A DNA stretch of 64,000 bases, from assembly GCA_963169195.1 (NCBI GenBank), contig CAUJDN010000109.1, forward strand, positions 5,695 to 69,694. Direction: 5' to 3'. The notes under the pieces are model-generated. The model was given only the letters and a program-made list of their open reading frames with translations, was not told the origin of the DNA and did not search any database. Below, in pieces: positions 17,922 through 39,974 of this stretch (position 1 is the first letter of the stretch; every line of letters begins with the position of its first letter). A program made the position numbers and the translations under genes. Source of the DNA: Acidobacteriota bacterium (GTDB lineage: Bacteria > Acidobacteriota > Vicinamibacteria > Vicinamibacterales > UBA2999).

Positions 17922-19940
17922 ATGCCCCGCCCTGCCGTTGCGCCGGTCGAGTCCACCGTCGAGACGGCGTGCCCGCTCGATTGCCCGGATGCCTGTGCCC
18001 TTACCGTCACCCTGCGGGGCGGGCGGATTGCGCGCATCAACGGCGGCACGGCCAACGAGGTGACGCGCGGCTACATCTGCGCGAAGGTCCGCCACTTCGA
18101 CCGGCGTGTCTACGGCGACGACCGTCTGCACTTCCCGGCCATCCGCCGCGGCCCCAAGGGCAAGGGCGAATTCACGCGCGTGACGTGGGACGACGCGCTG
18201 GACCGGATTGCCGGGAGGCTCGAGCAGGTGCGGCAGACCGACGGCCCCGAGGCCATCCTGCCCCTCTGCTACGGCGGCTCGAACGGCTACCTCACGCAGG
18301 ACTACGCCGACGCCATCCTGTTCCGCCGGCTCGGCGCGTCCCGCCTGCTCCGCACCGTGTGTGCGGCCCCGACCGGGGCGGCCAACGCGGGCCTCTACGG
18401 CAAGATGGGCTCGGTCGCGTACCAGGACTATCCCTCCGCGCGCCTCATCCTCGTCTGGGGGGTCAATCCCGGCGTCTCGGGCATCCACCTGATGCCCTAC
18501 CTCAAGGAGGCTCGCGAGCAGGGCGCCACCATCGTCGTCATCGATCCGAGGGCGACGAGCGTGGCACGCCAGTCGCACATTCACCTGGCCGTTCGTCCCG
18601 GAACCGACCTGGCCGTCGCGCTCGCCATGCATCGGCACCTGTTCGAGGAGGGCCTCGCCGACCAGGCCTTCCTGGCCACGCACGCCACCGGCGCCGACGC
18701 GCTCCGCGAGCGTGCGAGGCCGTGGACCTTCGAGCGGGCGGCCGAGGTGAGCGGCGTGCCGGCCGAGCGCCTGCGGCAGGTAGCCGACCTGTACGCCCGG
18801 ACGTCACCAGCCCTCGTGAAGTGCGGATGGGGCCTGGAGCGCAACCGCAACGGCGGCAGCGCGGCCGCCGCGGTCCTGGCCCTGCCCGCCGTCGGCGGCA
18901 AGTTCGGCGTGCGCGGCGGCGGGTATTCGATGAGCAACTCCGCGACGTGGGGCATCGAACGCCGGTGGCTCCACGACGGCGAGTCCGGGAGCCGCACCGT
19001 CAACATGAACCTCGTGGGCCGCGAGCTCACGACGCCCTCGGCGACGCCGGTTCGCGCGCTCTTCGTGTACAACTGCAACCCAGCGGTCACGCTCCCCGAC
19101 CAGGCCCGCGTGCTCGAGGGCCTGTCACGCCAGGACCTGTTCACGGTCGTCTTCGACCAGGTGCTCACCGACACGGCGCTCTACGCGGACGTCGTGCTGC
19201 CCGCCACCACGTTCCTGGAGCACTACGACTACGCGAAGGCGTATGGCGCATTGTCACTGCAGCTCGCGCGGCCGGTCATCGAGCCCGTCGGCGAGTCCCG
19301 ATCGAACACCGAGGTGTTCATGGATCTCGTGCGGCGGATGGGCCTGTCGCGCGACGGCGATCCTGACGACGATCTGGACGCGATGCTGGCCTCGCTCGCC
19401 GGGATGCCCGACGTCATCGGCGACGAGCTGCGGGCGACCTGGTGCGCGACGCCGCCCTTCAACGGCCGCCCCGTCCAGTTCGTGGACGTCTTCCCGAACA
19501 CGCCCGACCGCAGGATCCACCTCTGCCCCGAGACCCTGGATCGTGAAGCGCCCCGCGGCCTCTACGGCTACCAGGAGGATCCCGCCACCGCACGCTTCCC
19601 GCTGGCGCTCATCTCGCCTGCGAGCGAGCGCACGATCAGCTCCACTCTCGGCGAGTTCACGCGCCCCGACATCGCCCTCGACATGAACCCGGCCGACGCC
19701 GACGCGCGCGGCATCGAGGACGAGGATGACGTGCGGATGTTCAACAGCCAGGGTGAAGTGACGTTGAGGGCGCGGGTGACGCCGCTGGTGCGGCCCGGCA
19801 CCGTGTCGACCCCCAAGGGGGTGTGGCGCCGGCACACGCCCAACGGCTGGACGTCGAACGTGCTGGTCCCGGACAGCCTGACCGATCTGGGTGGCGGCGC
19901 GTGTTTCAACGACGCGCGCGTCGAGGTGGAAAGAGCCTGA
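17922..19940 (+). CDS. molybdopterin (bis-MGD) oxidoreductase family protein
   Basis: N-terminal 4Fe-4S motif CPLDCPDACAL...C, followed by the molybdopterin oxidoreductase and C-terminal dinucleotide-binding domains (RIHLCPE...LISPASERTISS...MNPADA). Substrate unknown. Confidence 0.9.
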   Translation: MPRPAVAPVESTVETACPLDCPDACALTVTLRGGRIARINGGTANEVTRGYICAKVRHFDRRVYGDDRLHFPAIRRGPKGKGEFTRVTWDDALDRIAGRLEQVRQTDGPEAILPLCYGGSNGYLTQDYADAILFRRLGASRLLRTVCAAPTGAANAGLYGKMGSVAYQDYPSARLILVWGVNPGVSGIHLMPYLKEAREQGATIVVIDPRATSVARQSHIHLAVRPGTDLAVALAMHRHLFEEGLADQAFLATHATGADALRERARPWTFERAAEVSGVPAERLRQVADLYARTSPALVKCGWGLERNRNGGSAAAAVLALPAVGGKFGVRGGGYSMSNSATWGIERRWLHDGESGSRTVNMNLVGRELTTPSATPVRALFVYNCNPAVTLPDQARVLEGLSRQDLFTVVFDQVLTDTALYADVVLPATTFLEHYDYAKAYGALSLQLARPVIEPVGESRSNTEVFMDLVRRMGLSRDGDPDDDLDAMLASLAGMPDVIGDELRATWCATPPFNGRPVQFVDVFPNTPDRRIHLCPETLDREAPRGLYGYQEDPATARFPLALISPASERTISSTLGEFTRPDIALDMNPADADARGIEDEDDVRMFNSQGEVTLRARVTPLVRPGTVSTPKGVWRRHTPNGWTSNVLVPDSLTDLGGGACFNDARVEVERA

Positions 19941-20620: not shown

Positions 20621-20642
20621 AATGGGGACGGAGGCAGGGAAC

Positions 20643-20972
20643 ATGAGCGTGTGTGGGGGTCCGACGGGCGCGCCGGACGAGGGCGCAGGCAACAAGAGCG
20701 GCCGCAAGGTCTTCTGCGTGAAGTTCCAGAAGGAGATGCCGGGGCTTGACTACGCGCCGTGGCCGGGCGAGCTCGGGCAGCGCATCTACGAGCACGTGTC
20801 CGCCCAGGCCTGGAAGCTCTGGGAGGACCGCCAGAAGATGATCCTCAACGAGTACCGCCTCATGCCGTGGCAGAAGGAGGCCCAGGAGCTGATTCGGACC
20901 CAGCTCGAGGAGTACTTCTTCGGGGAGGGCGCTGCCCTGCCGCCGGGCTACGTGCCGCAGCAGAGCAAGTAG
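20643..20972 (+). CDS. yggX: Fe(2+)-trafficking / oxidative-damage protection protein YggX family
   Basis: KVFCVKFQKEMPGLDYAPWPGELGQRIYEHVSAQAWKLWEDRQKMILNEYRL closely parallels E. coli YggX. GGAGG lies 8 nt upstream of ATG 20643. Confidence 0.85.
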   Translation: MSVCGGPTGAPDEGAGNKSGRKVFCVKFQKEMPGLDYAPWPGELGQRIYEHVSAQAWKLWEDRQKMILNEYRLMPWQKEAQELIRTQLEEYFFGEGAALPPGYVPQQSK

Positions 20973-21035: not shown

Positions 21036-22379
21036 TCACGTCGCACCTCTCTTCTGACTGCTCCTGACGGGCAGGTACGGGTCGATTGAGAAGCGGAGCG
21101 AGGCGTGCGCGGTGCGGAGCGCGTGCTCCACGACTTCGGGCGTGGCGCCGTGCGCGAAGAGGAATCCCAGGTAGCTGCTGCCCTCGGGCAGCGGGACCAG
21201 TCGCTGGTCCGTCTTCGCGGTGATCACGACGTCGTCAATCCCCGGCAGGGCTCTGGCCGCCTCGATGCCCTCGACGCGCCGGAGGATCCCGCCGCGGGGG
21301 ATGGGGATCATCATCACGCCGGAGGCCTCCGGCTCGCGCACCCACCCGTCCGGGGGCTCGCCAAGGGCGTGACGGAGCAGCAGGACCTCGAGCCCCGCGC
21401 GTGCGTCGGGCGGCCCTGCCTCCCGCACGAAGCGCAGGGCCCGGGCGCACAGGCCGCCAATCGGGCGCGCGGCGACCTCCAGTACGTACACGCCGTCGGC
21501 CGCCACGCGGCACTCGGCGTGGATCGGCCCATGGCTGAGGCCAACCGCGCGGGCCGCCGACGCCACCGCCGAGACGATGGCGTGCTGCGTGGAGCGGGCC
21601 TCCCGCGACGGCGTGACATAGAGGGTCTCCTCGAAGTACGGACCCTCGAGCGGATCGGGTTTGTCGAAGATCGCCAGCACGTGGAGGGCACCTCGATTGA
21701 GCACGCCCTCGAGCGCGTACTCGACGCCGTCGATGTAGCTCTCCACCTGCACGACACCGGGTTCGACACCGTCCGATGCGCGGACCCCCGGCGAGTCGAG
21801 GAGCTGCCGGATGCGGTGCACCGCCGCCGCGAACGACGACGGGTCGTCCGCGCGGATGACACCGCGGGATCCGGAGAGCGTCGTTGGCTTCACGACGACC
21901 GGGAAGCGAAGGGCGCCGGCGAGGGCGGCCGCGTCACTGCCGGCCTCGAGCACGGTGACAGCAGGCACCGGCAGGCCCGCGTCCCGCAGGCGCGCCCGCA
22001 TGCGGCGCTTGTCGCGCGCGATCTCGGCGCCGTCCGGCTCGTGGCCGGGCAGACCGAGGTGCCGCGCGACCAACGCGGCCAGCACGGCCGGCCCGTCGCC
22101 AACGGCGAGCACACCGTCCACGGGCAGGGCCAGGAGGGCTCGCTGGATGGTCCGGAGCGAGGCCTCCGGTTCGGCGAACCGCACCGCAAGGGCGCCATCG
22201 CGCCAGGGGTCATCCAGGTGACCGCACCGGTCCGTGGCGTACACGATCTCGACCCCGGCCCCTGCGGCGGCGTCCTCGAACATGCGCGTCTGGTAGCCGG
22301 TCGTCGTGGCCAGGAGCAGCACGCGCCGCGGCCGCGGCATGGGCGCCGGCGTGCCGGTCATCGCCGCCATGGGTGGCAT
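21036..22379 (-). CDS. ATP-grasp domain protein (carboxylate-amine/thiol ligase superfamily)
   Basis: DKRRMRARLRDAGLPVP...FPVVVKPTTLSGSRGVIRA...VESYIDGVEYALEG...GPIHAECRV..DGVYVLEVAARPIGG is the typical ATP-grasp core. It starts 10 nt after the extended radical SAM stop. Confidence 0.85.
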   Translation of the reverse strand: MPPMAAMTGTPAPMPRPRRVLLLATTTGYQTRMFEDAAAGAGVEIVYATDRCGHLDDPWRDGALAVRFAEPEASLRTIQRALLALPVDGVLAVGDGPAVLAALVARHLGLPGHEPDGAEIARDKRRMRARLRDAGLPVPAVTVLEAGSDAAALAGALRFPVVVKPTTLSGSRGVIRADDPSSFAAAVHRIRQLLDSPGVRASDGVEPGVVQVESYIDGVEYALEGVLNRGALHVLAIFDKPDPLEGPYFEETLYVTPSREARSTQHAIVSAVASAARAVGLSHGPIHAECRVAADGVYVLEVAARPIGGLCARALRFVREAGPPDARAGLEVLLLRHALGEPPDGWVREPEASGVMMIPIPRGGILRRVEGIEAARALPGIDDVVITAKTDQRLVPLPEGSSYLGFLFAHGATPEVVEHALRTAHASLRFSIDPYLPVRSSQKRGAT

Positions 22380-22389
22380 CGACGAGGCG

Positions 22390-23835
22390 TCACAGCAGAG
22401 CCACCTGCTCTGCGGTGGGCTCCGCTCAACAGTACCAGGGCTCGTTCAGGTACGGGATCGTCGCCCGCGACGGCAACGCGCGGAGTCGGCGCGCGGCCAC
22501 CCGCTCGCCGCCTCGCCGGTCGTCGCCCCCGGCGGCCGCATCGGCGAGAGCCCGGATCGCGTCGAAGGTCTCCTGCCGCGGGCGATTGATCTGCACGCCC
22601 ACGAGCTGCATCACGGCCCTCTGCAGCGCATCCACGCGCGCATCGGGATGCCGCCAGGGATGCGTGAGCGTGCGCGGGTCGACGTGCGACACCACGGCGC
22701 GGACATCGGACAGCTCGAGCAGGGGCGACCGGAGCGTCACGAGCAGGCGGATGGCCCACTGGACGGGCGACACATGCGCGACCAGACCCAGGTCTTCGAC
22801 CGCGTCCAGCAGCGCGCGGTAGCCGGGGAGGGTCGTCCACGGCGTGAACGCCACGAACGTCGGGGCGAGGGTCAGCGGGGTAGTGCGGCACAGCCGCACC
22901 GCCTCCTCGAAGTCTGCGCGTGTGTGCCCCTTCCGCAGCAGCCGCAACACGTCGTCGTCGATCGATTCCACGGCGCTGGTGACGAACAGGCACCCGTGAG
23001 CGGCGAGCACCGGCAGCAGCTCGCGATGCTTCAGCAGGTGCTCGATCTTGATGGTGGCATCGAAGGTCAGCGCCGGCCACTCGGCATGTAGGGCCTCGAC
23101 GATGCGGCGTGCGTGCGCGGGACCGTTCAGGAAATCTGGGTCGGCAAACGTGACGTGCTCCACGCCTGCGGCCACCTGGGCGCGGATGTCGGCCAGGACG
23201 ACGTCCACGGGGACGACCCGGACCTGCCCCCGGTACACCGGTACGATGGGACAGTGCCGGCACCAGTGCTTGCAGCCTCTGGTGGCGTCAGTTGATCCCG
23301 CGACGCGGCGCGTGCCGTCCGGGAGCTGCAGAGTGGCATACGAGGCCGGCGCGGGCAGGCCCCGGCGGTCGGGCTGGATGAACGGCAGGCGCGGCAGTGT
23401 CATGTGGCCTGCGGGCGACCGCGGCCGGGCGGCCTCCGGTGCCACGGGCGCCGCATCGGAGGGGTGTCCAGGGGCCGCGAGCTGCTGCGCCACCGCCAGG
23501 AGGTCCGCCTCGAACTCGGGGCCGAGGACGTGAGTCACGCCGTGCGATCTCAGCAGATCCTCGTTCAGCGGCGCGTAGAGGCCGTACGCACAGAGCGTGG
23601 CGCCGGGGTTCAACGCCCTCACGCGATCGAGGGCCGTCAGCGCGAGGCGCGTGGCGGTGTGCATCGGGAGAGAGATAGCCACCATTCGCGCACGCGCCAC
23701 GAGACCGGCATCCAGCGTCTGGCGAGACAGATCCAGGGCCACGGCCTCGAAACCCGCCCGCCGCAGCCACGCCGCCGGCGAGGCCAGCCCGAACGGCTGC
23801 CGGCCGAGGTCGTAGGTAGAGAGCAGCAGCACCAC
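22390..23835 (-). CDS. B12-binding-domain radical SAM protein with C-terminal C-U-A-E-P tail (putative selenoprotein; TGA 22426-22428 read as Sec)
   Basis: N-terminal VVLLLSTYDLGRQPFGLASPAAWL (B12-like domain). The radical SAM motif is CKHWCRHC. The ORF track stops at WYC-TGA, but the same frame continues GCG GAG CCC ACC GCA GAG CAG GTG GCT CTG CTG TGA (AEPTAEQVALL*). An 11-bp hairpin begins right after the TGA. Start GTG 23835 (or 23832). The upstream 447 codons of ORF 22426..25176 are repeat or antisense shadow. Confidence 0.75.
22395..22425 (-). promoter_or_regulatory. putative bacterial SECIS hairpin
   Basis: The RNA reads UGA-GCGGAGCC(C)ACC-GCAGAGCA-GGUGGCUCUGC. It has 11 bp (one G-U) with a single bulged C and an 8-nt apical loop, starting immediately 3' of the UGA. 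Confidence 0.6.
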
Positions 23836-23860: not shown

Positions 23861-23985
23861 CCTGCGTGCCTCGCCCCCCCGTGCTTCGAACCCCCGTGCT
23901 TCGAACCCTCGTGCTTCGAACCCCCGTGCTTCGAACCCCCGTGCATAGCACCTTTCGTGCCTCGAACCTTCGTGTCTATACTCTC
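23861..23985. repeat. 15-bp tandem array (CCCCCGTGCTTCGAA-type), about 8 units, in a divergent promoter region
   Basis: cctgcgtgcctcgcc cccccgtgcttcgaa x2 ccctcgtgcttcgaa cccccgtgcttcgaa cccccgtgcatagca, then decayed units. Same family as 29510..29644. Confidence 0.9.
23977..23982 (+). promoter_or_regulatory. -10-like box TATACT, 18 nt before the ATG at 24001
   Basis: TATACT lies inside the decayed end of the 15-mer array. Confidence 0.3.
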
Positions 23986-24000
23986 CCGGGGGTTTCGACC

Positions 24001-25285
24001 ATGTGGAGCCGACGTTCGTTTCTTCGCCTCACCGGCGGCGCGGCAGGTGCCGGGTTCGCCGCCACGCGCTATGGCCTCGAAGACGTGGCCGCGCTCACCC
24101 AGTCCGTGGCCGGCCGCACGCCCGCGCAGGTGGCCGCGGACGAGGACTACTGGCGTGAAATCCAGTTCGCGTTCACGCTCGATCGCACCTTGATCAACCT
24201 GAACAACGGCAACCAGTGCCCCAGCCCCACCGTGGTGCACGAGGCCTGCAAACGCTACATGGACTGGTCGAACCAGGCGCCGGTCTACCACCGGGGCATG
24301 ATCGACAGGAACATCGAGACCGCGCGGCGGCGCCTCGCGGCCGAGTTCGGCGCCGACCCCGAGGAGATTGCCATCACCCGCAACGCCAGCGAGTCGCTGC
24401 AGATCGCGCAGATGGGCCTCGATCTCGAGCCGGGTGACGAAATCGTCACGACCGAGCAGGACTACGGGCGCATGCTCACGACGTGGGACCAGCGCGTGCG
24501 GCGCGACAAGGTGGCGCTCAAGCGCATCGACTTCCCGGTGCCGACCACCCAGCAGGACCTGATGGAGCGGCTCACCAGCGCCGTGTCGCCGCGGACGAAA
24601 GTGCTGCACTTCTGCCACATCACGAACCAGTCGGGCCAGCTCTTCCCGGTCCGCGAGCTGAGCCTCTGGGCCCGTTCCCGCGGCATCATCACCATCGTGG
24701 ACGGCGCACACGCCATGGGCCACTTCCCGTACAAGCTGCGCGACCTCGAGATGGACTACTACGGCGTCAGCCTTCACAAGTGGCTGCTGGCTCCCCTCGG
24801 CACGGGCCTGCTCTACGTGCGGCGCGACCGCATCGCCTCCACGTGGCCGCTGCAAGCCGCGCCGCAGCGCAGGGAGAACGACATCCGCAAGTTCGAGGAG
24901 ATCGGCACGCACCCGCCGGGCCCGCGGGCGGCCATCAACGAGGCCGTGGCGTTCCAGCAGGCGATCGGCATCGAACGCAAGGCTGCGCGACTGCGCTACC
25001 TGACGCTGCGCTGGGCCAACGAGCTGAAGAAGGAGCCGCGCGTCCGCCTGCACTCCAGCCTGGACGAGGGGCAGACCTGGGGGCTCGCCGTCGTCTCCAT
25101 CGATGGCATCGACACCAGCAAGCTCGTCCCCTACCTGTGGGACCGGCACCGCATCGTCATCACCGCCGTCGGGCACGAGAACGAGAAGGAGCCGGCCCTC
25201 TCGTACCGCGGCCTGCGCGTGACGCCGAACATCTACACCCCGCTCGAGGAGATCGACTACTTCGTCGAGGCCATCCGCGGCGTCA

Positions 25286-25308
<23 letters not shown>
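24001..25308 (+). CDS. class V aminotransferase-fold PLP enzyme (cysteine desulfurase / isopenicillin-N-epimerase-like) with Tat signal
   Basis: MWSRRSFLRLTGGAAGAG is a twin-arginine motif. The PLP-lysine motif is SLHKW. The ORF track start 23866 is a translation of the repeat array. Confidence 0.85.
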
Positions 25309-26794
<1,486 letters not shown>

Positions 26795-29509: not shown

Positions 29510-29644
29510 CCCCGTGCCTCGAACCTCCGTGCCTCGAACCTCCGTGCCTCGAACCTCCGTGCTTCGAACCTCCGTGCTTCGAACCTCCGTGCTTCGAACC
29601 TCCGTGCTTCGAACCTCCGTGCTTCGAACCTCCGTGCTTCGAAC
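29510..29644. repeat. 15-bp tandem array CCTCCGTGC(C/T)TCGAA, 9 units; fills the entire intergenic gap
   Basis: cccccgtgcctcgaa, cctccgtgcctcgaa x2, cctccgtgcttcgaa x6. On the transcribed (minus) strand each unit reads UUCGAAGCACGGAGG. Confidence 0.95.
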
Positions 29645-31084
29645 CTACTTGCGATAGTCCAGCGCGGGTTTCCGATCGGCAAGCCTGGTCGAGTACTTGA
29701 ATCCCGGCCCGCGCCGCTGGTCGAACTCCGCGCGCGCCTTCTGGATGTGTGCCGGGTCGGAGAAGAGGTCGATGGCCGTGAGCGCCATGCTCTTGGCCGC
29801 CACGAGCATGCCCTTGACGCCAATCGAGGTGCCGCCGGCGGCCACGGCCTGCCAGCTGTGGGCGGGCGTTCCCGGCACCCAGGTGGCCGAGGTGAGCTGT
29901 ACGGTCGGCACGTTCCAGCTGACATCCCCGAGATCGGTGGACGCGCTGCCGATGCCGGGCTCCGGCGTGAACACCGAATTGGCGCTGTCGATGGGCGGCA
30001 GGTTGCCGTCGAGCGACACCCGGAGGATCTCGGCGAACTGGCGCTCGGCCGGCGTGTACTCGTAGCCGCCGACCGCCTGCAGGTTCTTCTGCATCAGCCC
30101 CACCAGATAGGAGTTGGGCAGGACGTTCCAGACGGCCCCGGTCAGTTCCAGCTCCATCGTCGTGTCCGTGCCGAGGGCGGCGCCGCGCGCGGCGTTCTGG
30201 ATGCGCTCCCAGATGCCTTCGAGCACGCGCATGTCGTTGTGGCGGGCGTAGTAGTAGGCCTCGGCGAAGTCGGGCACGACGTTCGGCGCGCGGCCACCGT
30301 TCGTGATGACGTAGTGGATGCGCGCGTCGGAGGGCACGTGCTCCCGCATCAGGTTCACCATGGCGTTCATCGCCTCGACGCCGTCGAGGGCCGAGCGCCC
30401 GCGGTCCGGGGCGGACGAGGCGTGGGCGGATTGGCCGCGGAAGCGGAACTTGCCCGTGATATTCGCCAGCGTGCTCGACGCGCTCGACGCGTTCCGGTCC
30501 CCGGGGTGCATCGTGACGACGACGTCCACGTCGCTGAAGAGCCCCGCGCGCAGCATGTAGACCTTGCCGGCGCCGCCTTCCTCGGCGGGCGTCCCGAAGA
30601 AGCGCAGCGTGCCGGGCCGCTTCGCCGCCACGAGCCACTCCTTCACCGCGATCGCGGCGGCCGTCGAGGCCGTGCCGAAGAGGTGATGGCCGCATCCGTG
30701 GCCCGCGCCGTCGGGGACGAGCGCGTGCCGCTCGGGCTCGGCCGCCTGCGACAGGCCGGGCAGCGCGTCGAACTCCCCGACGATGCCGATGACGGGCTGG
30801 CCGCTGCCCCACTCGGCGGTGAACGCCGTGGGGATCTCGGCCACGCCGGCCTCGACCGTGAAGCCGGCGGTGCGCAGCTGCTCCTGCAGCAGCGCGCTGC
30901 TCTTCTCCTCCTGGTAGCCGACCTCGGCGAACGACCAGATCCGCAGCGCGACGTCGGCGTACGCCTGGCCCCTGCTGTCGATCGACGCGAGGACGGCTTT
31001 CGCGTCCATGCCCTGTCCCTGGAGCGGCGCCGTCACGGCCGCCCACGCCATCAGCGCCCCCGCGAGCCCGTATCTCATGGCCAT
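29645..31084 (-). CDS. M20 family amidohydrolase (AbgB / aminobenzoyl-glutamate utilisation protein B-like), secreted
   Basis: Signal peptide MAMRYGLAGALMAWAAVTAPLQGQG. Motifs EVGYQEEKSS, GEFDALPGLSQ, GHGCGHHLFG. Paralog at 40569..42200. Confidence 0.85.
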   Translation of the reverse strand: MAMRYGLAGALMAWAAVTAPLQGQGMDAKAVLASIDSRGQAYADVALRIWSFAEVGYQEEKSSALLQEQLRTAGFTVEAGVAEIPTAFTAEWGSGQPVIGIVGEFDALPGLSQAAEPERHALVPDGAGHGCGHHLFGTASTAAAIAVKEWLVAAKRPGTLRFFGTPAEEGGAGKVYMLRAGLFSDVDVVVTMHPGDRNASSASSTLANITGKFRFRGQSAHASSAPDRGRSALDGVEAMNAMVNLMREHVPSDARIHYVITNGGRAPNVVPDFAEAYYYARHNDMRVLEGIWERIQNAARGAALGTDTTMELELTGAVWNVLPNSYLVGLMQKNLQAVGGYEYTPAERQFAEILRVSLDGNLPPIDSANSVFTPEPGIGSASTDLGDVSWNVPTVQLTSATWVPGTPAHSWQAVAAGGTSIGVKGMLVAAKSMALTAIDLFSDPAHIQKARAEFDQRRGPGFKYSTRLADRKPALDYRK

Positions 31085-37113: not shown

Positions 37114-38607
37114 GTGCGAGCGCTGACCCACGTGGCCGGTGCGCTGGCGTTTCTCGCGCTGGCGACGCTCAACTCGGGCGGATACCGGTTCGGCGCCTCT
37201 GATCAGGCCTTCTACATTCCCGCTGTCCTGAAACGGCTCGACCCGACGCTGTTCCCGCGCGACGCCGCGCTCCTGGATCCCCAGGCGCGCTACTTCTTCG
37301 TGGACGAGATCGTCGCGGGGACGATGCGCGCGACCGGCTGGTCCATGGAATCGTGCTTCGCGGCCGGCTACGGGCTCACGCTGGCGCTCCTCTACCTGGC
37401 ACTCTGGCGGCTCGGGCACGTGCTCTTCCGGTCGCCGCTCGCCCCGTGGGCCTTCGTCGCCGCCGAGACGCTGCGCCACCGCATCACGAAGACGGGCGTC
37501 AACACGCTCGAGAGCTACTTCCACCCACGCGTGCTGGTCTTCGCGATCGGTGTCTGGGCCATCGGCGCGTACTTGCGCGGACGCCCGCGGCTCGCCGTGA
37601 GTGCCATCCTGGCGGCGGGCCTGCTCCACCCCACGATGGCGGCATTCTTCGTGCTCTTCCTCGCGGTCGCCATCTGGACCACCGAGCCAGGTGCACGACG
37701 GGACGTCGGCCTGCTGGCCGTCGTCGGCATCGTCGGTGTCGCGTGGCTGCTGCTCGCCGGGCCCATGCAAGGGGCCCTGGCGCCGATGGACGCTCAATGG
37801 CGGGAGCTGCTGGCGGCGAAGGACTACCTCTTCCCGGTTCGCGACTGGTCTGCTGGCGCCTGGGTAGCCAACCTGGGCACGGCGGGCCTGGCCATCGGCA
37901 CGCTGGCGTGGCGGGCCCGCCGTGATGCGGGGGCACCGCGCGAGCGCGGGTTGCTGGCGGGAGGCGTCGCTCTCCTCGTCGGCTTCCTGATCACGCTGCC
38001 CGCGGTGTCCGCGGGGTCCGCCCTGTTCGTTCAGCTCCAGATCTCCCGCGTGTTCTGGGTGCTGGACCTGCTGGGCACGGTTGCGCTCGTCTGGCTGCTC
38101 GTGGACCGGCCCCCGCAACGGGCGGCGCAGACGCCATCGCGATGGCGGGCAGCGGTGGCGGCCGCCATCGTCGTGGCCGCCGCGGCCCGCGGCGCGTGGG
38201 TCGGATTCGTCGAGCACGGGGATCGCCCGCTCATCGCGGTGAGCCTGCCCGATGACGACTGGACGCGGGTCATTCGCTGGGCGGAGCGGCAGCCCTCCGG
38301 CGCCCACCTGCTGGCCGACCCGGGCCACGCGTGGCGCTTTGGCACGCCGCTCCGGCACGCCGGGCGGGACGTGTTCCTGGAGGAGGTGAAGGACTCGGCC
38401 CTGGCCATCTACGCGCGCGGGTCGGCCGCCCGGGTCCTCGAGCGCCGCGCGGCCCTCGGCGACTTCGCCACGCTCGATGCGGACGGCGCGCGGTCGCTGG
38501 CCGCCCGCTATCGGCTCGACTACCTGGTCATCGACCGCGACCTGGACCTCCGCCTCGCGCACCGCGAGGGCCGCTTCCGCATCTACGCGCTCCGGAACCA
38601 GCGCTGA
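37114..38607 (+). CDS. polytopic membrane protein, function unknown (possibly glycosyltransferase-C-like)
   Basis: At least 10 hydrophobic segments followed by a soluble C-terminal domain. GTG start. The function guess is weak. Confidence 0.7.
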   Translation: MRALTHVAGALAFLALATLNSGGYRFGASDQAFYIPAVLKRLDPTLFPRDAALLDPQARYFFVDEIVAGTMRATGWSMESCFAAGYGLTLALLYLALWRLGHVLFRSPLAPWAFVAAETLRHRITKTGVNTLESYFHPRVLVFAIGVWAIGAYLRGRPRLAVSAILAAGLLHPTMAAFFVLFLAVAIWTTEPGARRDVGLLAVVGIVGVAWLLLAGPMQGALAPMDAQWRELLAAKDYLFPVRDWSAGAWVANLGTAGLAIGTLAWRARRDAGAPRERGLLAGGVALLVGFLITLPAVSAGSALFVQLQISRVFWVLDLLGTVALVWLLVDRPPQRAAQTPSRWRAAVAAAIVVAAAARGAWVGFVEHGDRPLIAVSLPDDDWTRVIRWAERQPSGAHLLADPGHAWRFGTPLRHAGRDVFLEEVKDSALAIYARGSAARVLERRAALGDFATLDADGARSLAARYRLDYLVIDRDLDLRLAHREGRFRIYALRNQR

Positions 38608-38658
38608 GCGCCCCAGTCTCCGAAACCCGGAACCCGAGAACCCCGGCCCCCGTTCGCG

Positions 38659-38664
38659 TACAAT
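38659..38664 (+). promoter_or_regulatory. -10-like box TACAAT, 23 nt before the ATG at 38688 (GGAGG-containing short leader)
   Basis: gcgTACAATgcccggcatcaacGGAGGcacgtATG. Confidence 0.35.
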
Positions 38665-38687
38665 GCCCGGCATCAACGGAGGCACGT

Positions 38688-39974
38688 ATGTCAGCAGCTG
38701 TTTCGCGTCGCGACTTCACCCGCCTGTTTGCCCTCGGCGGTTCGGCGGCCCTCTTTGCGGACCCGGTGTGGGCCAGCCAGGCGGCGCCGACGCCCGCGCT
38801 CGCGCCTGGCGGGGCCGCGTCCGGGGAGCCGTTCTGGACGAGCGTGCGCGATCAGTTCGTGATGCCGGCCGACCTGGCGGTGATGAACGCCGCCAACCTG
38901 TGTCCCTCGTCGCGCGGCGTCGTCGAGACGCTGACGAAGGAGACGCGCAGCGTGGACCAGGATCCGTCGCCGCACAACCGCGCGCGGCTGTATCCGGAGA
39001 AGGAGCAGACGCGCAAGGCGCTGGCCGAGTTCCTCCGCGTCACCCCCGAGGAGGTCATCATCACCCGCAACACCAGCGAATCGAACAACCTGGTGTCGAG
39101 CGGGCTGGATCTCAAGGCGGGCGACGAGGTCATCGTTCACGCCGACAACCACCCGAGCAACCTGAACGCGTGGCGCGAGAAGGCAAGGCGGTTCGGGTAC
39201 TCGCTCGTCACCATCGAGCAGAGGAACCCGCACCCCGGGGCCGGGTACTACGAGGAGGCGTTCACGCGCGCCATCACGCCACGCACCAGGGTCATCGCCT
39301 TCACACACCTGACGAGCACCGTCGGCGACTACATGCCGGCCCGAGCTCTCTGCCGCATCGCGCGCGAGCGCGGAGTGCTGTCGCTCGTGGACGGTGCGCA
39401 GAGCTTCGGCCTGCTGGACGTCAACCTCGCCGACATGAAGCCCGACTTCTACACGGGCAGCGCGCACAAGTGGCCCTGCGGCGCGCGCGAGTGCGGCGTG
39501 CTCTACGTGAACAAGGCCGTGCAGGATCGGCTGTGGCCGAGCATCTACAGCGCCTACCCCGGTGCGGTGGGCTTCTCGAAGACGTTCGAAGGGTTCGGCC
39601 AGCGCGACGAGGCGACGATGATCGCGTTCCGCGAGGCGCTGGCGTTCCAGACGAAAGTGGGACGCACGGCGATCGAGCAGCGCTCGCGCGCGCTCGCCAC
39701 GCAGTTGATGGACGGCCTGGCGAAGCTGCCTGACGTGAAGGTGTGGACTTCGCCTGTCGCCGAGCGGCGCGTCGCCGTCGTGTCGTTCGTGCCCGGCTCG
39801 CTCGACGCCAGCCGGCTGGCGACCGCGCTCTACGAGAAGGACAAGGTGGCCATCACCACGCGCGGCGGGAAGGACCGCCCCGGCCTCCGGGTCTCGCCGC
39901 ACTTCTACAACAGCCCGGCCGAAGTGGATCGCCTGCTGGCCGCGCTCGGGAGCTACCTGAAGACCGGCCTCTGA
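38688..39974 (+). CDS. class V aminotransferase-fold PLP enzyme with Tat signal (paralog of 24001..25308)
   Basis: MSAAVSRRDFTRLFALGGSAALFADPVWA is a twin-arginine motif. The PLP-lysine motif is SAHKW. Confidence 0.85.
   Translation: MSAAVSRRDFTRLFALGGSAALFADPVWASQAAPTPALAPGGAASGEPFWTSVRDQFVMPADLAVMNAANLCPSSRGVVETLTKETRSVDQDPSPHNRARLYPEKEQTRKALAEFLRVTPEEVIITRNTSESNNLVSSGLDLKAGDEVIVHADNHPSNLNAWREKARRFGYSLVTIEQRNPHPGAGYYEEAFTRAITPRTRVIAFTHLTSTVGDYMPARALCRIARERGVLSLVDGAQSFGLLDVNLADMKPDFYTGSAHKWPCGARECGVLYVNKAVQDRLWPSIYSAYPGAVGFSKTFEGFGQRDEATMIAFREALAFQTKVGRTAIEQRSRALATQLMDGLAKLPDVKVWTSPVAERRVAVVSFVPGSLDASRLATALYEKDKVAITTRGGKDRPGLRVSPHFYNSPAEVDRLLAALGSYLKTGL

Follow-up and report, generated by a model that had tools for sequence, protein, structure and literature searches.

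A selenocysteine codon predicted near the 3' end of a CUAEP-tail radical SAM gene from an Acidobacteriota bacterium

The locus and its reading frame

The 64,000-nucleotide stretch of DNA analysed here (the window) is part of contig CAUJDN010000109.1 of the Acidobacteriota assembly GCA_963169195.1. On its minus strand it contains a gene for a radical S-adenosylmethionine (SAM) protein, which is interrupted close to its 3' end by an in-frame TGA codon. When this TGA is read through, the coding sequence extends over positions 22390..23835 and encodes a protein of 481 amino acids, starting with a GTG codon at 23835, with selenocysteine (Sec, U) predicted at residue 470 (22426..22428) and with a second TGA at 22392-22390 as the true stop. 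The last codons on the minus strand are ATC CCG TAC CTG AAC GAG CCC TGG TAC TGT TGA(22428-22426), followed by GCG GAG CCC ACC GCA GAG CAG GTG GCT CTG CTG TGA(22392-22390), so that the in-frame translation ends with IPYLNEPWYC-U-AEPTAEQVALL. Both TGA codons and a read-through tail C-U-A-E-P-T-A-E-Q-V-A-L-L had been proposed in a preliminary description of this DNA, and a second reading of the minus strand agrees with it exactly. Directly downstream, in the same orientation, a gene for an ATP-grasp protein of the L-amino-acid-ligase type was identified (21036..22379, minus strand, start ambiguous between 22340 and 22379; Pfam ATP-grasp_4, LAL_C2 and ATPgrasp_N). It starts 10-49 nt past the true stop of the radical SAM gene.

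The GTG at 23835 is likely the start of the radical SAM gene, since homologues begin to align at VLLLSTYDLGRQPFG, with the pattern xxVLLLSTYDLGRQPFG. A database copy of the protein (P0001), named only 'radical SAM protein', consists of 491 amino acids and stops at the UGA. Its start is located farther upstream and is probably placed too far upstream, because it falls inside the first array of a tandem repeat. This 15-nt repeat (CGTGCTTCGAACCYC) forms two arrays in the window, one at 23865-23944 (5.3 copies) and one at 29513-29647 (9 copies), with 13 matches in the window compared to 0.31 expected. The first array is situated in the divergent intergenic region directly upstream of the radical SAM start. 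A public contig encoding the same protein, JADYYW010000049.1 from an Acidobacteria metagenome-assembled genome (MAG; GCA_020853475.1), is 99.4-99.8% identical over the part compared (window positions 12410-33991) and differs by several indels, one of which lies in or beside the tandem-repeat region, where two alignment blocks overlap.

The radical SAM core is recognised by Pfam PF04055 with 48.7 bits. The [4Fe-4S] motif C188-x3-C192-x2-C195 (GCKHWCRHCP; 23251..23274, minus strand) occupies columns that are invariant in two homologue alignments, in which the core cysteine C282 is also invariant and C316 nearly so. The TGA is preceded by the motif R-A-T-I-P-Y-L-N-E-P-W-Y-C (residues 457-469; 22429..22467, minus strand), which comes after a variable linker of about 30 amino acids. 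Among 65 sequences, R457, P461, Y462, E465, P466, W467, Y468 and C469 were found to be invariant, and the stretch before the motif has no consensus. In the layout of the family, the conserved core is thus joined by a variable linker of about 30 residues to a short invariant tail, R-x-x-[IV]-P-Y-[LM]-x-E-P-W-Y-C-U-A-E-P. In a number of members (P0079, P0101, P0110, P0118, P0075, P0084 and others) the linker is made up of short peptide repeats like GTLGTLGTL, LSGAEGLALSGAE or KSPNREITKSP, which suggests that the tail is carried on a low-complexity, flexible tether.

Comparative evidence for recoding of the UGA codon

For the comparison of the 3' ends, 80 genomic loci were collected, mostly from Acidobacteriota MAGs and encoding proteins with 49-68% identity. 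The gene end is visible in 78 of them, which together with the window gives 79 sequences. The codon following the W-[YF]-C motif is TGA in 58 of these and TGC or TGT in 21, while TAA or TAG was never found. The true terminators of the Sec-type genes are mixed, with TGA in 25 cases, TAG in 19 and TAA in 11. The alternation of TGA and cysteine codons at one position, together with conserved coding sequence past the UGA, is the pattern by which selenoprotein genes are usually recognised in sequence comparisons.

Coding conservation past the UGA is most clearly seen for the three codons of the Ala-Glu-Pro motif (22417..22425, minus strand). Ala-Glu-Pro (AEP) is present in frame in 53 of 55 Sec-type sequences, with the codons GCG (37), GCC (12), GCT (2) and GCA (2) for alanine, GAG (43) and GAA (12) for glutamate, and CCC (28), CCG (17), CCA (8) and CCT (2) for proline. 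Only 2 non-synonymous changes were counted in 165 codons, with third positions free to vary. In the Cys-type homologues, AEP is also kept after the second cysteine. The tail is further retained at loci which lack the ATP-grasp gene or carry it at a distance of more than 1 kb; therefore its conservation does not derive from an overlapping downstream gene.

A distant member with 47% identity is present in a cultured organism, Thermomicrobium roseum DSM 5159, on the megaplasmid NC_011961.1 (796591-798027 and beyond; locus L082, 6935-8430). Here, ...ESWFC is followed by TGA and then in frame by AEPLEDPSGPV..., and RefSeq ends the gene at the TGA. The gene neighbours in T. roseum are unlike those in the window and comprise a pyridoxal-phosphate-dependent aminotransferase, a major facilitator superfamily transporter and a large GNAT acetyltransferase.

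The comparison thus shows that UGA470 is not the end of the protein and that the next 11 codons are translated. If TGA 22426-22428 were instead a real stop, the protein would end with ...EPWYC, and the downstream AEP codons and hairpin would be untranslated, for example as an element for mRNA stability or as an inter-cistronic element for the ATP-grasp gene. All automatic annotations do end the protein at this TGA, and no Sec machinery was detected in the window; in addition, the hairpin described below is not significant in isolation. A real stop, however, leaves unaccounted for why all 58 stop-type sequences use TGA when the terminators of the same genes use all three stop codons, why a cysteine codon followed by the same AEP takes this position in 21 homologues, and why the AEP codons undergo synonymous change with nearly no replacement. 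The tail and the hairpin also persist without the ATP-grasp gene, and neither an intrinsic terminator (U-tract) nor a promoter was found at the hairpin. A real stop is thus considered extremely improbable.

As annotated, nearly all public copies of the gene end at the UGA, with 118 of the 120 closest database proteins ending at the conserved ...PW(Y)C, including the near-identical copy of the window protein and the T. roseum RefSeq entry. The annotated products lack Sec and at least 11 residues after it, the part which is most likely to touch the substrate. These numbers support the proposal of the preliminary description that the UGA is read through as Sec into a CUAEP tail, and they confirm its expectation that standard gene callers shorten the gene.

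A conserved hairpin downstream of the UGA

Selenocysteine insertion in bacteria depends on an mRNA hairpin, the selenocysteine insertion sequence (SECIS). In E. coli fdhF, SelB binds a short apical stem-loop which is separated from the UGA by 11 nt and whose loop contains an essential G-U. For the window gene, the preliminary description had assigned this role to a stem of 11 bp at 22395-22425, which includes a bulged C and a G-U pair and closes a loop of 8 nt. This stem does exist, being the minimum free energy (MFE) fold of the RNA with -19.7 kcal/mol when evaluated alone. Its stability is not beyond chance for a sequence with 70% G+C, however, with z = -1.33 and 14 of 200 dinucleotide shuffles at least as stable.

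Structures were compared on the 55 Sec-type sequences, aligned without gaps over 48 columns, with 500 shuffles as reference. As a SECIS element the 11-bp stem was rejected: 71.1% of its cells are paired compared to 72.5% in the shuffles, with 500 of 500 shuffles as high, and it shows 2 double-change cells where 6.8 are expected and a covariation score of 0.090 compared to 0.112. Its 5' arm (22414..22425, minus strand) is peculiar to the window sequence and is not conserved. It seems that the long stem arises since the Ala-Glu codons occur twice in the tail, as GCG GAG CC and as GCA GAG CA.

The 5' arm of the long stem competes for its 3' arm with a shorter hairpin, and it is this shorter structure that is conserved. 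It is located at 22395..22413 (minus strand) and consists of the 5' arm GCAGAGC (22413-22407), the loop AGGUG (22406-22402) and the 3' arm GCUCUGC (22401-22395), forming 7 bp and beginning 12 nt past the UGA. When the alignment was analysed by RNAalifold, only 3 pairs of this hairpin were found, because one subgroup is shifted by 1 nt, and the short hairpin was therefore tested explicitly. For this structure, 81.0% of the cells are paired compared to 70.1 +/- 1.3 in the shuffles, none of which (0 of 500) reached as high a value. Double-change cells numbered 51, compared to 21.8 in the shuffles, and the covariation score was 0.344 compared to 0.169. When the partners were slid by 1-3 columns, pairing fell to 43-54% of the cells. 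Pair types alternate within single columns, as in CG 25/GC 14/AU 11 and in AU 26/GC 15/GU 9. The unpaired cells derive mostly from the subgroup with GGGAC-CAGUUG-GUCCC, which forms the same hairpin with a shift of 1 nt. The spacer between UGA and stem is 12-13 nt in 40 of the 55 sequences, the stem has 6-8 bp in 46 of them, and the loops follow AG[G/U]U[G/U].

Selection on the RNA is also visible in the codons of the tail. Glutamine at tail codon 7 is encoded by CAG in 58 of 58 cases, compared to 76% CAG in the gene bodies, and leucine at tail codon 8 by TTG in 27 of 27 cases, compared to 11% TTG. The synonymous sites of these codons are fixed. The amino acids of the tail themselves co-vary in a manner that keeps the stem, with A-E...A-L alternating with G-D...V-P. 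The hairpin is missing in Cys-type tails, and the tails of the two types differ in their folding, with a mean MFE of -11.7 kcal/mol and a mean z of -1.68 for the Sec-type compared to -7.0 kcal/mol and -0.54 for the Cys-type. This comparison shows that the short hairpin 12 nt downstream is under selection at the RNA level, and that this is the case only in UGA-type genes.

Like the SECIS element of fdhF, the hairpin is a stem-loop inside the coding sequence 3' of an in-frame UGA. The spacer of 12 nt compares to 11 nt in fdhF, and both structures share a short apical stem and a G-U in the loop at about position 24-26 counted from the U of the UGA. Differences are the 7-bp stem with a 5-nt loop, the lack of a bulged U and an unrelated sequence. 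By analogy to the mechanism of E. coli fdhF and SelB, the first 12 nt or so after the UGA would be held inside the mRNA channel when the ribosome is positioned on this codon, and the short hairpin becomes the MFE fold when these 12 nt are kept single-stranded. The 7-bp hairpin with its G-U-containing apical loop would then be exposed and would bind SelB.GTP.Sec-tRNA(Sec), Sec would be inserted at the UGA, and translation would stop 11 codons further on.

For T. roseum, a different hairpin with GGACC/GGUCC arms appears possible about 14 nt downstream of the UGA, as judged by eye only. A scan of the whole window with Rfam at gathering thresholds gave no match, a result which is uninformative for bacterial SECIS elements.

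The selenocysteine machinery and the weight of the evidence

The recoding of the UGA lies far above chance, because the pairing of TGA with cysteine codons, the in-frame AEP and the covarying hairpin are found together across 78 loci and the window. The UGA aligns with cysteine codons of homologues, with coding conservation beyond it, and is followed after 12 nt by a conserved stem-loop with G/U in the apical loop, as known for SelB-dependent selenoproteins. We assign a probability of roughly 0.85 to the reading that the gene encodes a 481-residue member of the NCBIfam family NF040546, introduced below, in which UGA470 is decoded as Sec with the short downstream hairpin as the insertion signal.

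Several points weigh against this reading. Searches of the 64-kb window and of related loci totalling about 1.3 Mb revealed no selA, selB, selD or tRNA-Sec gene. For selA, selB and selD these comprised Pfam on the window genes and tblastn with E. coli SelA, SelB and SelD against the window and all related loci; ARAGORN found a single tRNA in the window, for alanine, and no tRNA-Sec in 60 related loci. A scan of the window for in-frame TGA codons flanked by coding-type codon bias revealed no other selenoprotein gene. When SelD and SelA were used in tblastn against a plasmid collection, T. roseum was not among the matches listed. At the RNA level, the hairpin is short, one subgroup needs a register shift of 1 nt, the covariation statistics ignore phylogenetic non-independence, and the free RNA of the window prefers the longer, non-conserved stem (-19.7 compared to -12.6 kcal/mol).

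The intact, family-typical SECIS element points to a capacity for Sec insertion in this organism. A different explanation would be that recoding of the UGA holds for the family, but that Sec is not inserted in this particular organism, either because the gene is a truncated relic after loss of the Sec trait, or because a suppressor tRNA or a Cys-charged tRNA(Sec)-like tRNA inserts cysteine or serine. This would be consistent with the absence of Sec machinery from the 64-kb window and with literature describing allo-tRNAs of Acidobacteria as potential nonsense suppressors and tRNA(Cys) of the selC* type from other phyla. The hairpin, the loop and the synonymous sites of the window gene are, however, intact and the same as the family consensus, which is unexpected after loss of SelB-dependent decoding. 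Lineages without Sec carry a cysteine codon instead, and the reports of selC* genes concern anaerobes that belong to other phyla and not Acidobacteria. Decoding as an amino acid other than Sec, or no decoding at all, is thus regarded as very unlikely for the window gene.

Family membership and relation to ArsL

Genes of the kind described here are already curated, and the window gene adds a further, mis-annotated member to them. The preliminary description had referred to a 'CUAEP/CCAEP-tail radical SAM (seleno)protein' class from NCBI, which exists as NF040546. With U entered as C, residues 2-479 of the window protein match profile positions 1-467 of 468 with 620.4 bits (E = 1.8e-186), above the curated cut-off of 500 bits. 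The match is full-length and includes CX3CX2C, the C-(Sec/Cys)-A-E-P motif and the Sec/Cys alternation at the same column, and no feature of the window protein sets it apart from the family. At least 592 matching stretches were identified in species-representative genomes, and the family is common in soil Acidobacteriota. It was named by Haft and Gwadz (bioRxiv 10.1101/2022.07.06.499078), who list it as 'uncharacterized' together with the small number of bacterial selenoproteins that have a Cys-Sec (CU) motif. This is the single paper naming the family in the literature searched, in which the motif name did not match a 2026 review on prokaryotic selenoproteins.

The next-best NCBIfam model is that of ArsL (NF040542), which matches residues 2-408 with 265.5 bits and does not reach its cut-off of 450. 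Identity with the RCCLKC-tail proteins encoded on Bacillus and Priestia plasmids is 31-33% over 86% of the length. By sequence, the core of the CUAEP enzyme appears to be a sister of ArsL, with ArsL as its closest characterised relative. ArsL, an enzyme of arsinothricin biosynthesis, is a non-canonical radical SAM enzyme. It splits SAM into methylthioadenosine and a 3-amino-3-carboxypropyl (ACP) radical, which it then attaches to As(III). As(III) is bound by the RCCLKC motif at the C-terminus; formation of the C-As bond depends on this motif, whereas SAM cleavage does not. Hence the sole characterised relative of the CUAEP proteins uses an unusual kind of radical SAM chemistry to form a carbon-arsenic bond, with a C-terminal tail holding the arsenic.

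Both proteins share the core and the overall architecture, in which a linker leads to a short, conserved C-terminal tail rich in cysteine, and an ATP-grasp gene is present in some RCCLKC-tail clusters, too. They differ in the tail itself, which in the window protein is C-U-A-E-P with two chalcogen ligands, whereas ArsL has R-C-C-L-K-C with three cysteines (...KRCCLKC in B. cereus). They also differ in gene context, since arsM, arsQ, arsN and ars resistance genes are present around RCCLKC-tail genes and were found neither in the window nor in the conserved neighbourhoods. The window protein is thus separated from ArsL by the profile cut-off, the RCCLKC triad and the arsenic gene context.

On the analogy to ArsL, the Cys-Sec tail is tentatively proposed, with low confidence, to be an arm that holds a soft element as the substrate of an ArsL-like reaction. 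The flexible linker with the vicinal Cys-Sec pair would hold a soft metal(loid) or a chalcogen substrate at the active site. CU motifs of other bacterial selenoproteins, such as HgcA, the SAO system and MerT-like proteins, have been linked to heavy-metal binding (bioRxiv 10.1101/2022.07.06.499078). This function is weakened by the failed ArsL cut-off and the missing third cysteine of the tail, although the core offers the conserved C282 and C316, by the absence of arsenic, mercury or other metal(loid) genes from the conserved neighbourhoods, and by about 15 loci without the ATP-grasp partner.

With Sec inserted, the Cys-Sec pair might alternatively form a selenenylsulfide and act as a redox arm, comparable to the GCUG tail of thioredoxin reductase, that reduces or resolves an intermediate of an ordinary 5'-deoxyadenosyl-radical reaction instead of holding a metal(loid) for ACP transfer. 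The tail of thioredoxin reductase is characterised by just such a vicinal Cys-Sec pair on a flexible extension of the C-terminus, a likeness that had been noted in the preliminary description. The likeness in this respect stands, as an analogy only. The folds are unrelated, and Sec in the window protein is located 12 residues from the C-terminus with 11 residues after it, whereas it is penultimate in thioredoxin reductase; the protein is thus not a pyridine-nucleotide disulfide oxidoreductase ending in GCUG, and neither this fold nor a partner with it was found. The closer analogy is provided by the sister family ArsL, whose RCCLKC tail binds As(III), and the metal-binding CU motifs of HgcA, the SAO system and MerT-like proteins also speak against a redox arm. 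The conservation of C282 and C316 in the core and the lack of conserved metal(loid) resistance or transport genes nearby would suit a redox function, as would the ArsL score below cut-off. A redox role of the tail is the main rival to the substrate-holding arm and is likewise considered possible with low confidence.

Gene neighbourhood and the chemistry of the family

If the tail is a substrate-holding arm, the ATP-grasp protein would act in a subsequent step. Its gene is located directly downstream and in the same orientation in 60 of the 80 loci, which include, besides Acidobacteriota, MAGs labelled Methylomirabilota, Eisenbacteria and beta proteobacterium. The best solved relative of the window protein is the L-amino acid ligase BL00235 of Bacillus licheniformis (3VOT, E = 1.1e-38, residues 49-412), followed by BacD. 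With these ligases it shares LAL_C2 and the 3VOT match, a likeness seen at the sequence level. A specific NCBIfam model for the ATP-grasp protein was not found, the best match having 130.7 bits compared to a cut-off of 625. Because the partner is conserved and resembles L-amino acid ligases, the idea is supported, though not proven, that the product of the radical SAM enzyme is an amino acid which is then ligated into a peptide. If the reaction is ArsL-like, its product would be an amino acid of the ACP type, from which the co-transcribed L-amino-acid-ligase-type enzyme would make a dipeptide.

A more far-reaching reading is a two-gene pathway, widespread in soil Acidobacteriota, in which an ArsL-like ACP radical would be joined to As, Sb, Se, Te, S or Hg held on the Cys-Sec tail, and the product built into a dipeptide. 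In this specific form the pathway is doubtful and rather improbable. Should it apply, it would be an organo-metal(loid) or organo-chalcogen counterpart of the Trojan-horse dipeptide antimetabolites, and Sec would have been selected for binding the soft element better than cysteine. The function of the family is directly testable through the refined SECIS element, the conserved ligase partner and a culturable organism with the TGA form.

RCCLKC-tail clusters on plasmids of Bacillus cereus (L083, 438-1661) and Priestia megaterium (L086, 3477-4700) contain a conserved gene pair for a carboxymuconolactone-decarboxylase-family protein and an ATP-grasp protein beside arsR. They also hold genes for an aquaporin, ArsN1, ArsI and ACR3. 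The ATP-grasp protein of these clusters has 26% identity with that of the window over 201 residues. Since an ATP-grasp gene is found in RCCLKC-tail ars clusters, an ATP-grasp step may also be part of some arsinothricin-like pathways.

Other genes are associated with the cluster to varying degrees. A YggX-like Fe(2+)-trafficking gene (20622..20972, plus strand; Pfam Iron_traffic, PF04362 on the near-identical record) is convergent with the operon and syntenic, and a gene of this type is found beside the ATP-grasp gene in 57 of the 80 loci; a functional link is unproven. A gene for a POT/PTR2-family peptide transporter (25286..26794, minus strand; PF00854/PF07690) is located upstream in the window. 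It is a neighbour in 26 of the 80 loci with varying orientation, which is a weaker association. A molybdopterin oxidoreductase gene (17922..19940, plus strand; Molybdop_Fe4S4, Molybdopterin and Molydop_binding) is syntenic with the cluster in 18 of the 80 loci, and the window copy has no in-frame stop.

Two genes for class-V aminotransferases are present in the window, both on the plus strand (23866-25308 and 38256-39974). The first is divergent from the radical SAM gene and was considered as a conserved partner, which was rejected, as it is a neighbour in just 2 of the 80 loci. Its product has a twin-arginine-like N-terminus (RRSFLRLTGGAAGAGFA). Further recurrent neighbours of the cluster are housekeeping genes, with LigD_N, CofD, aconitase, NadA and MoaA among them.

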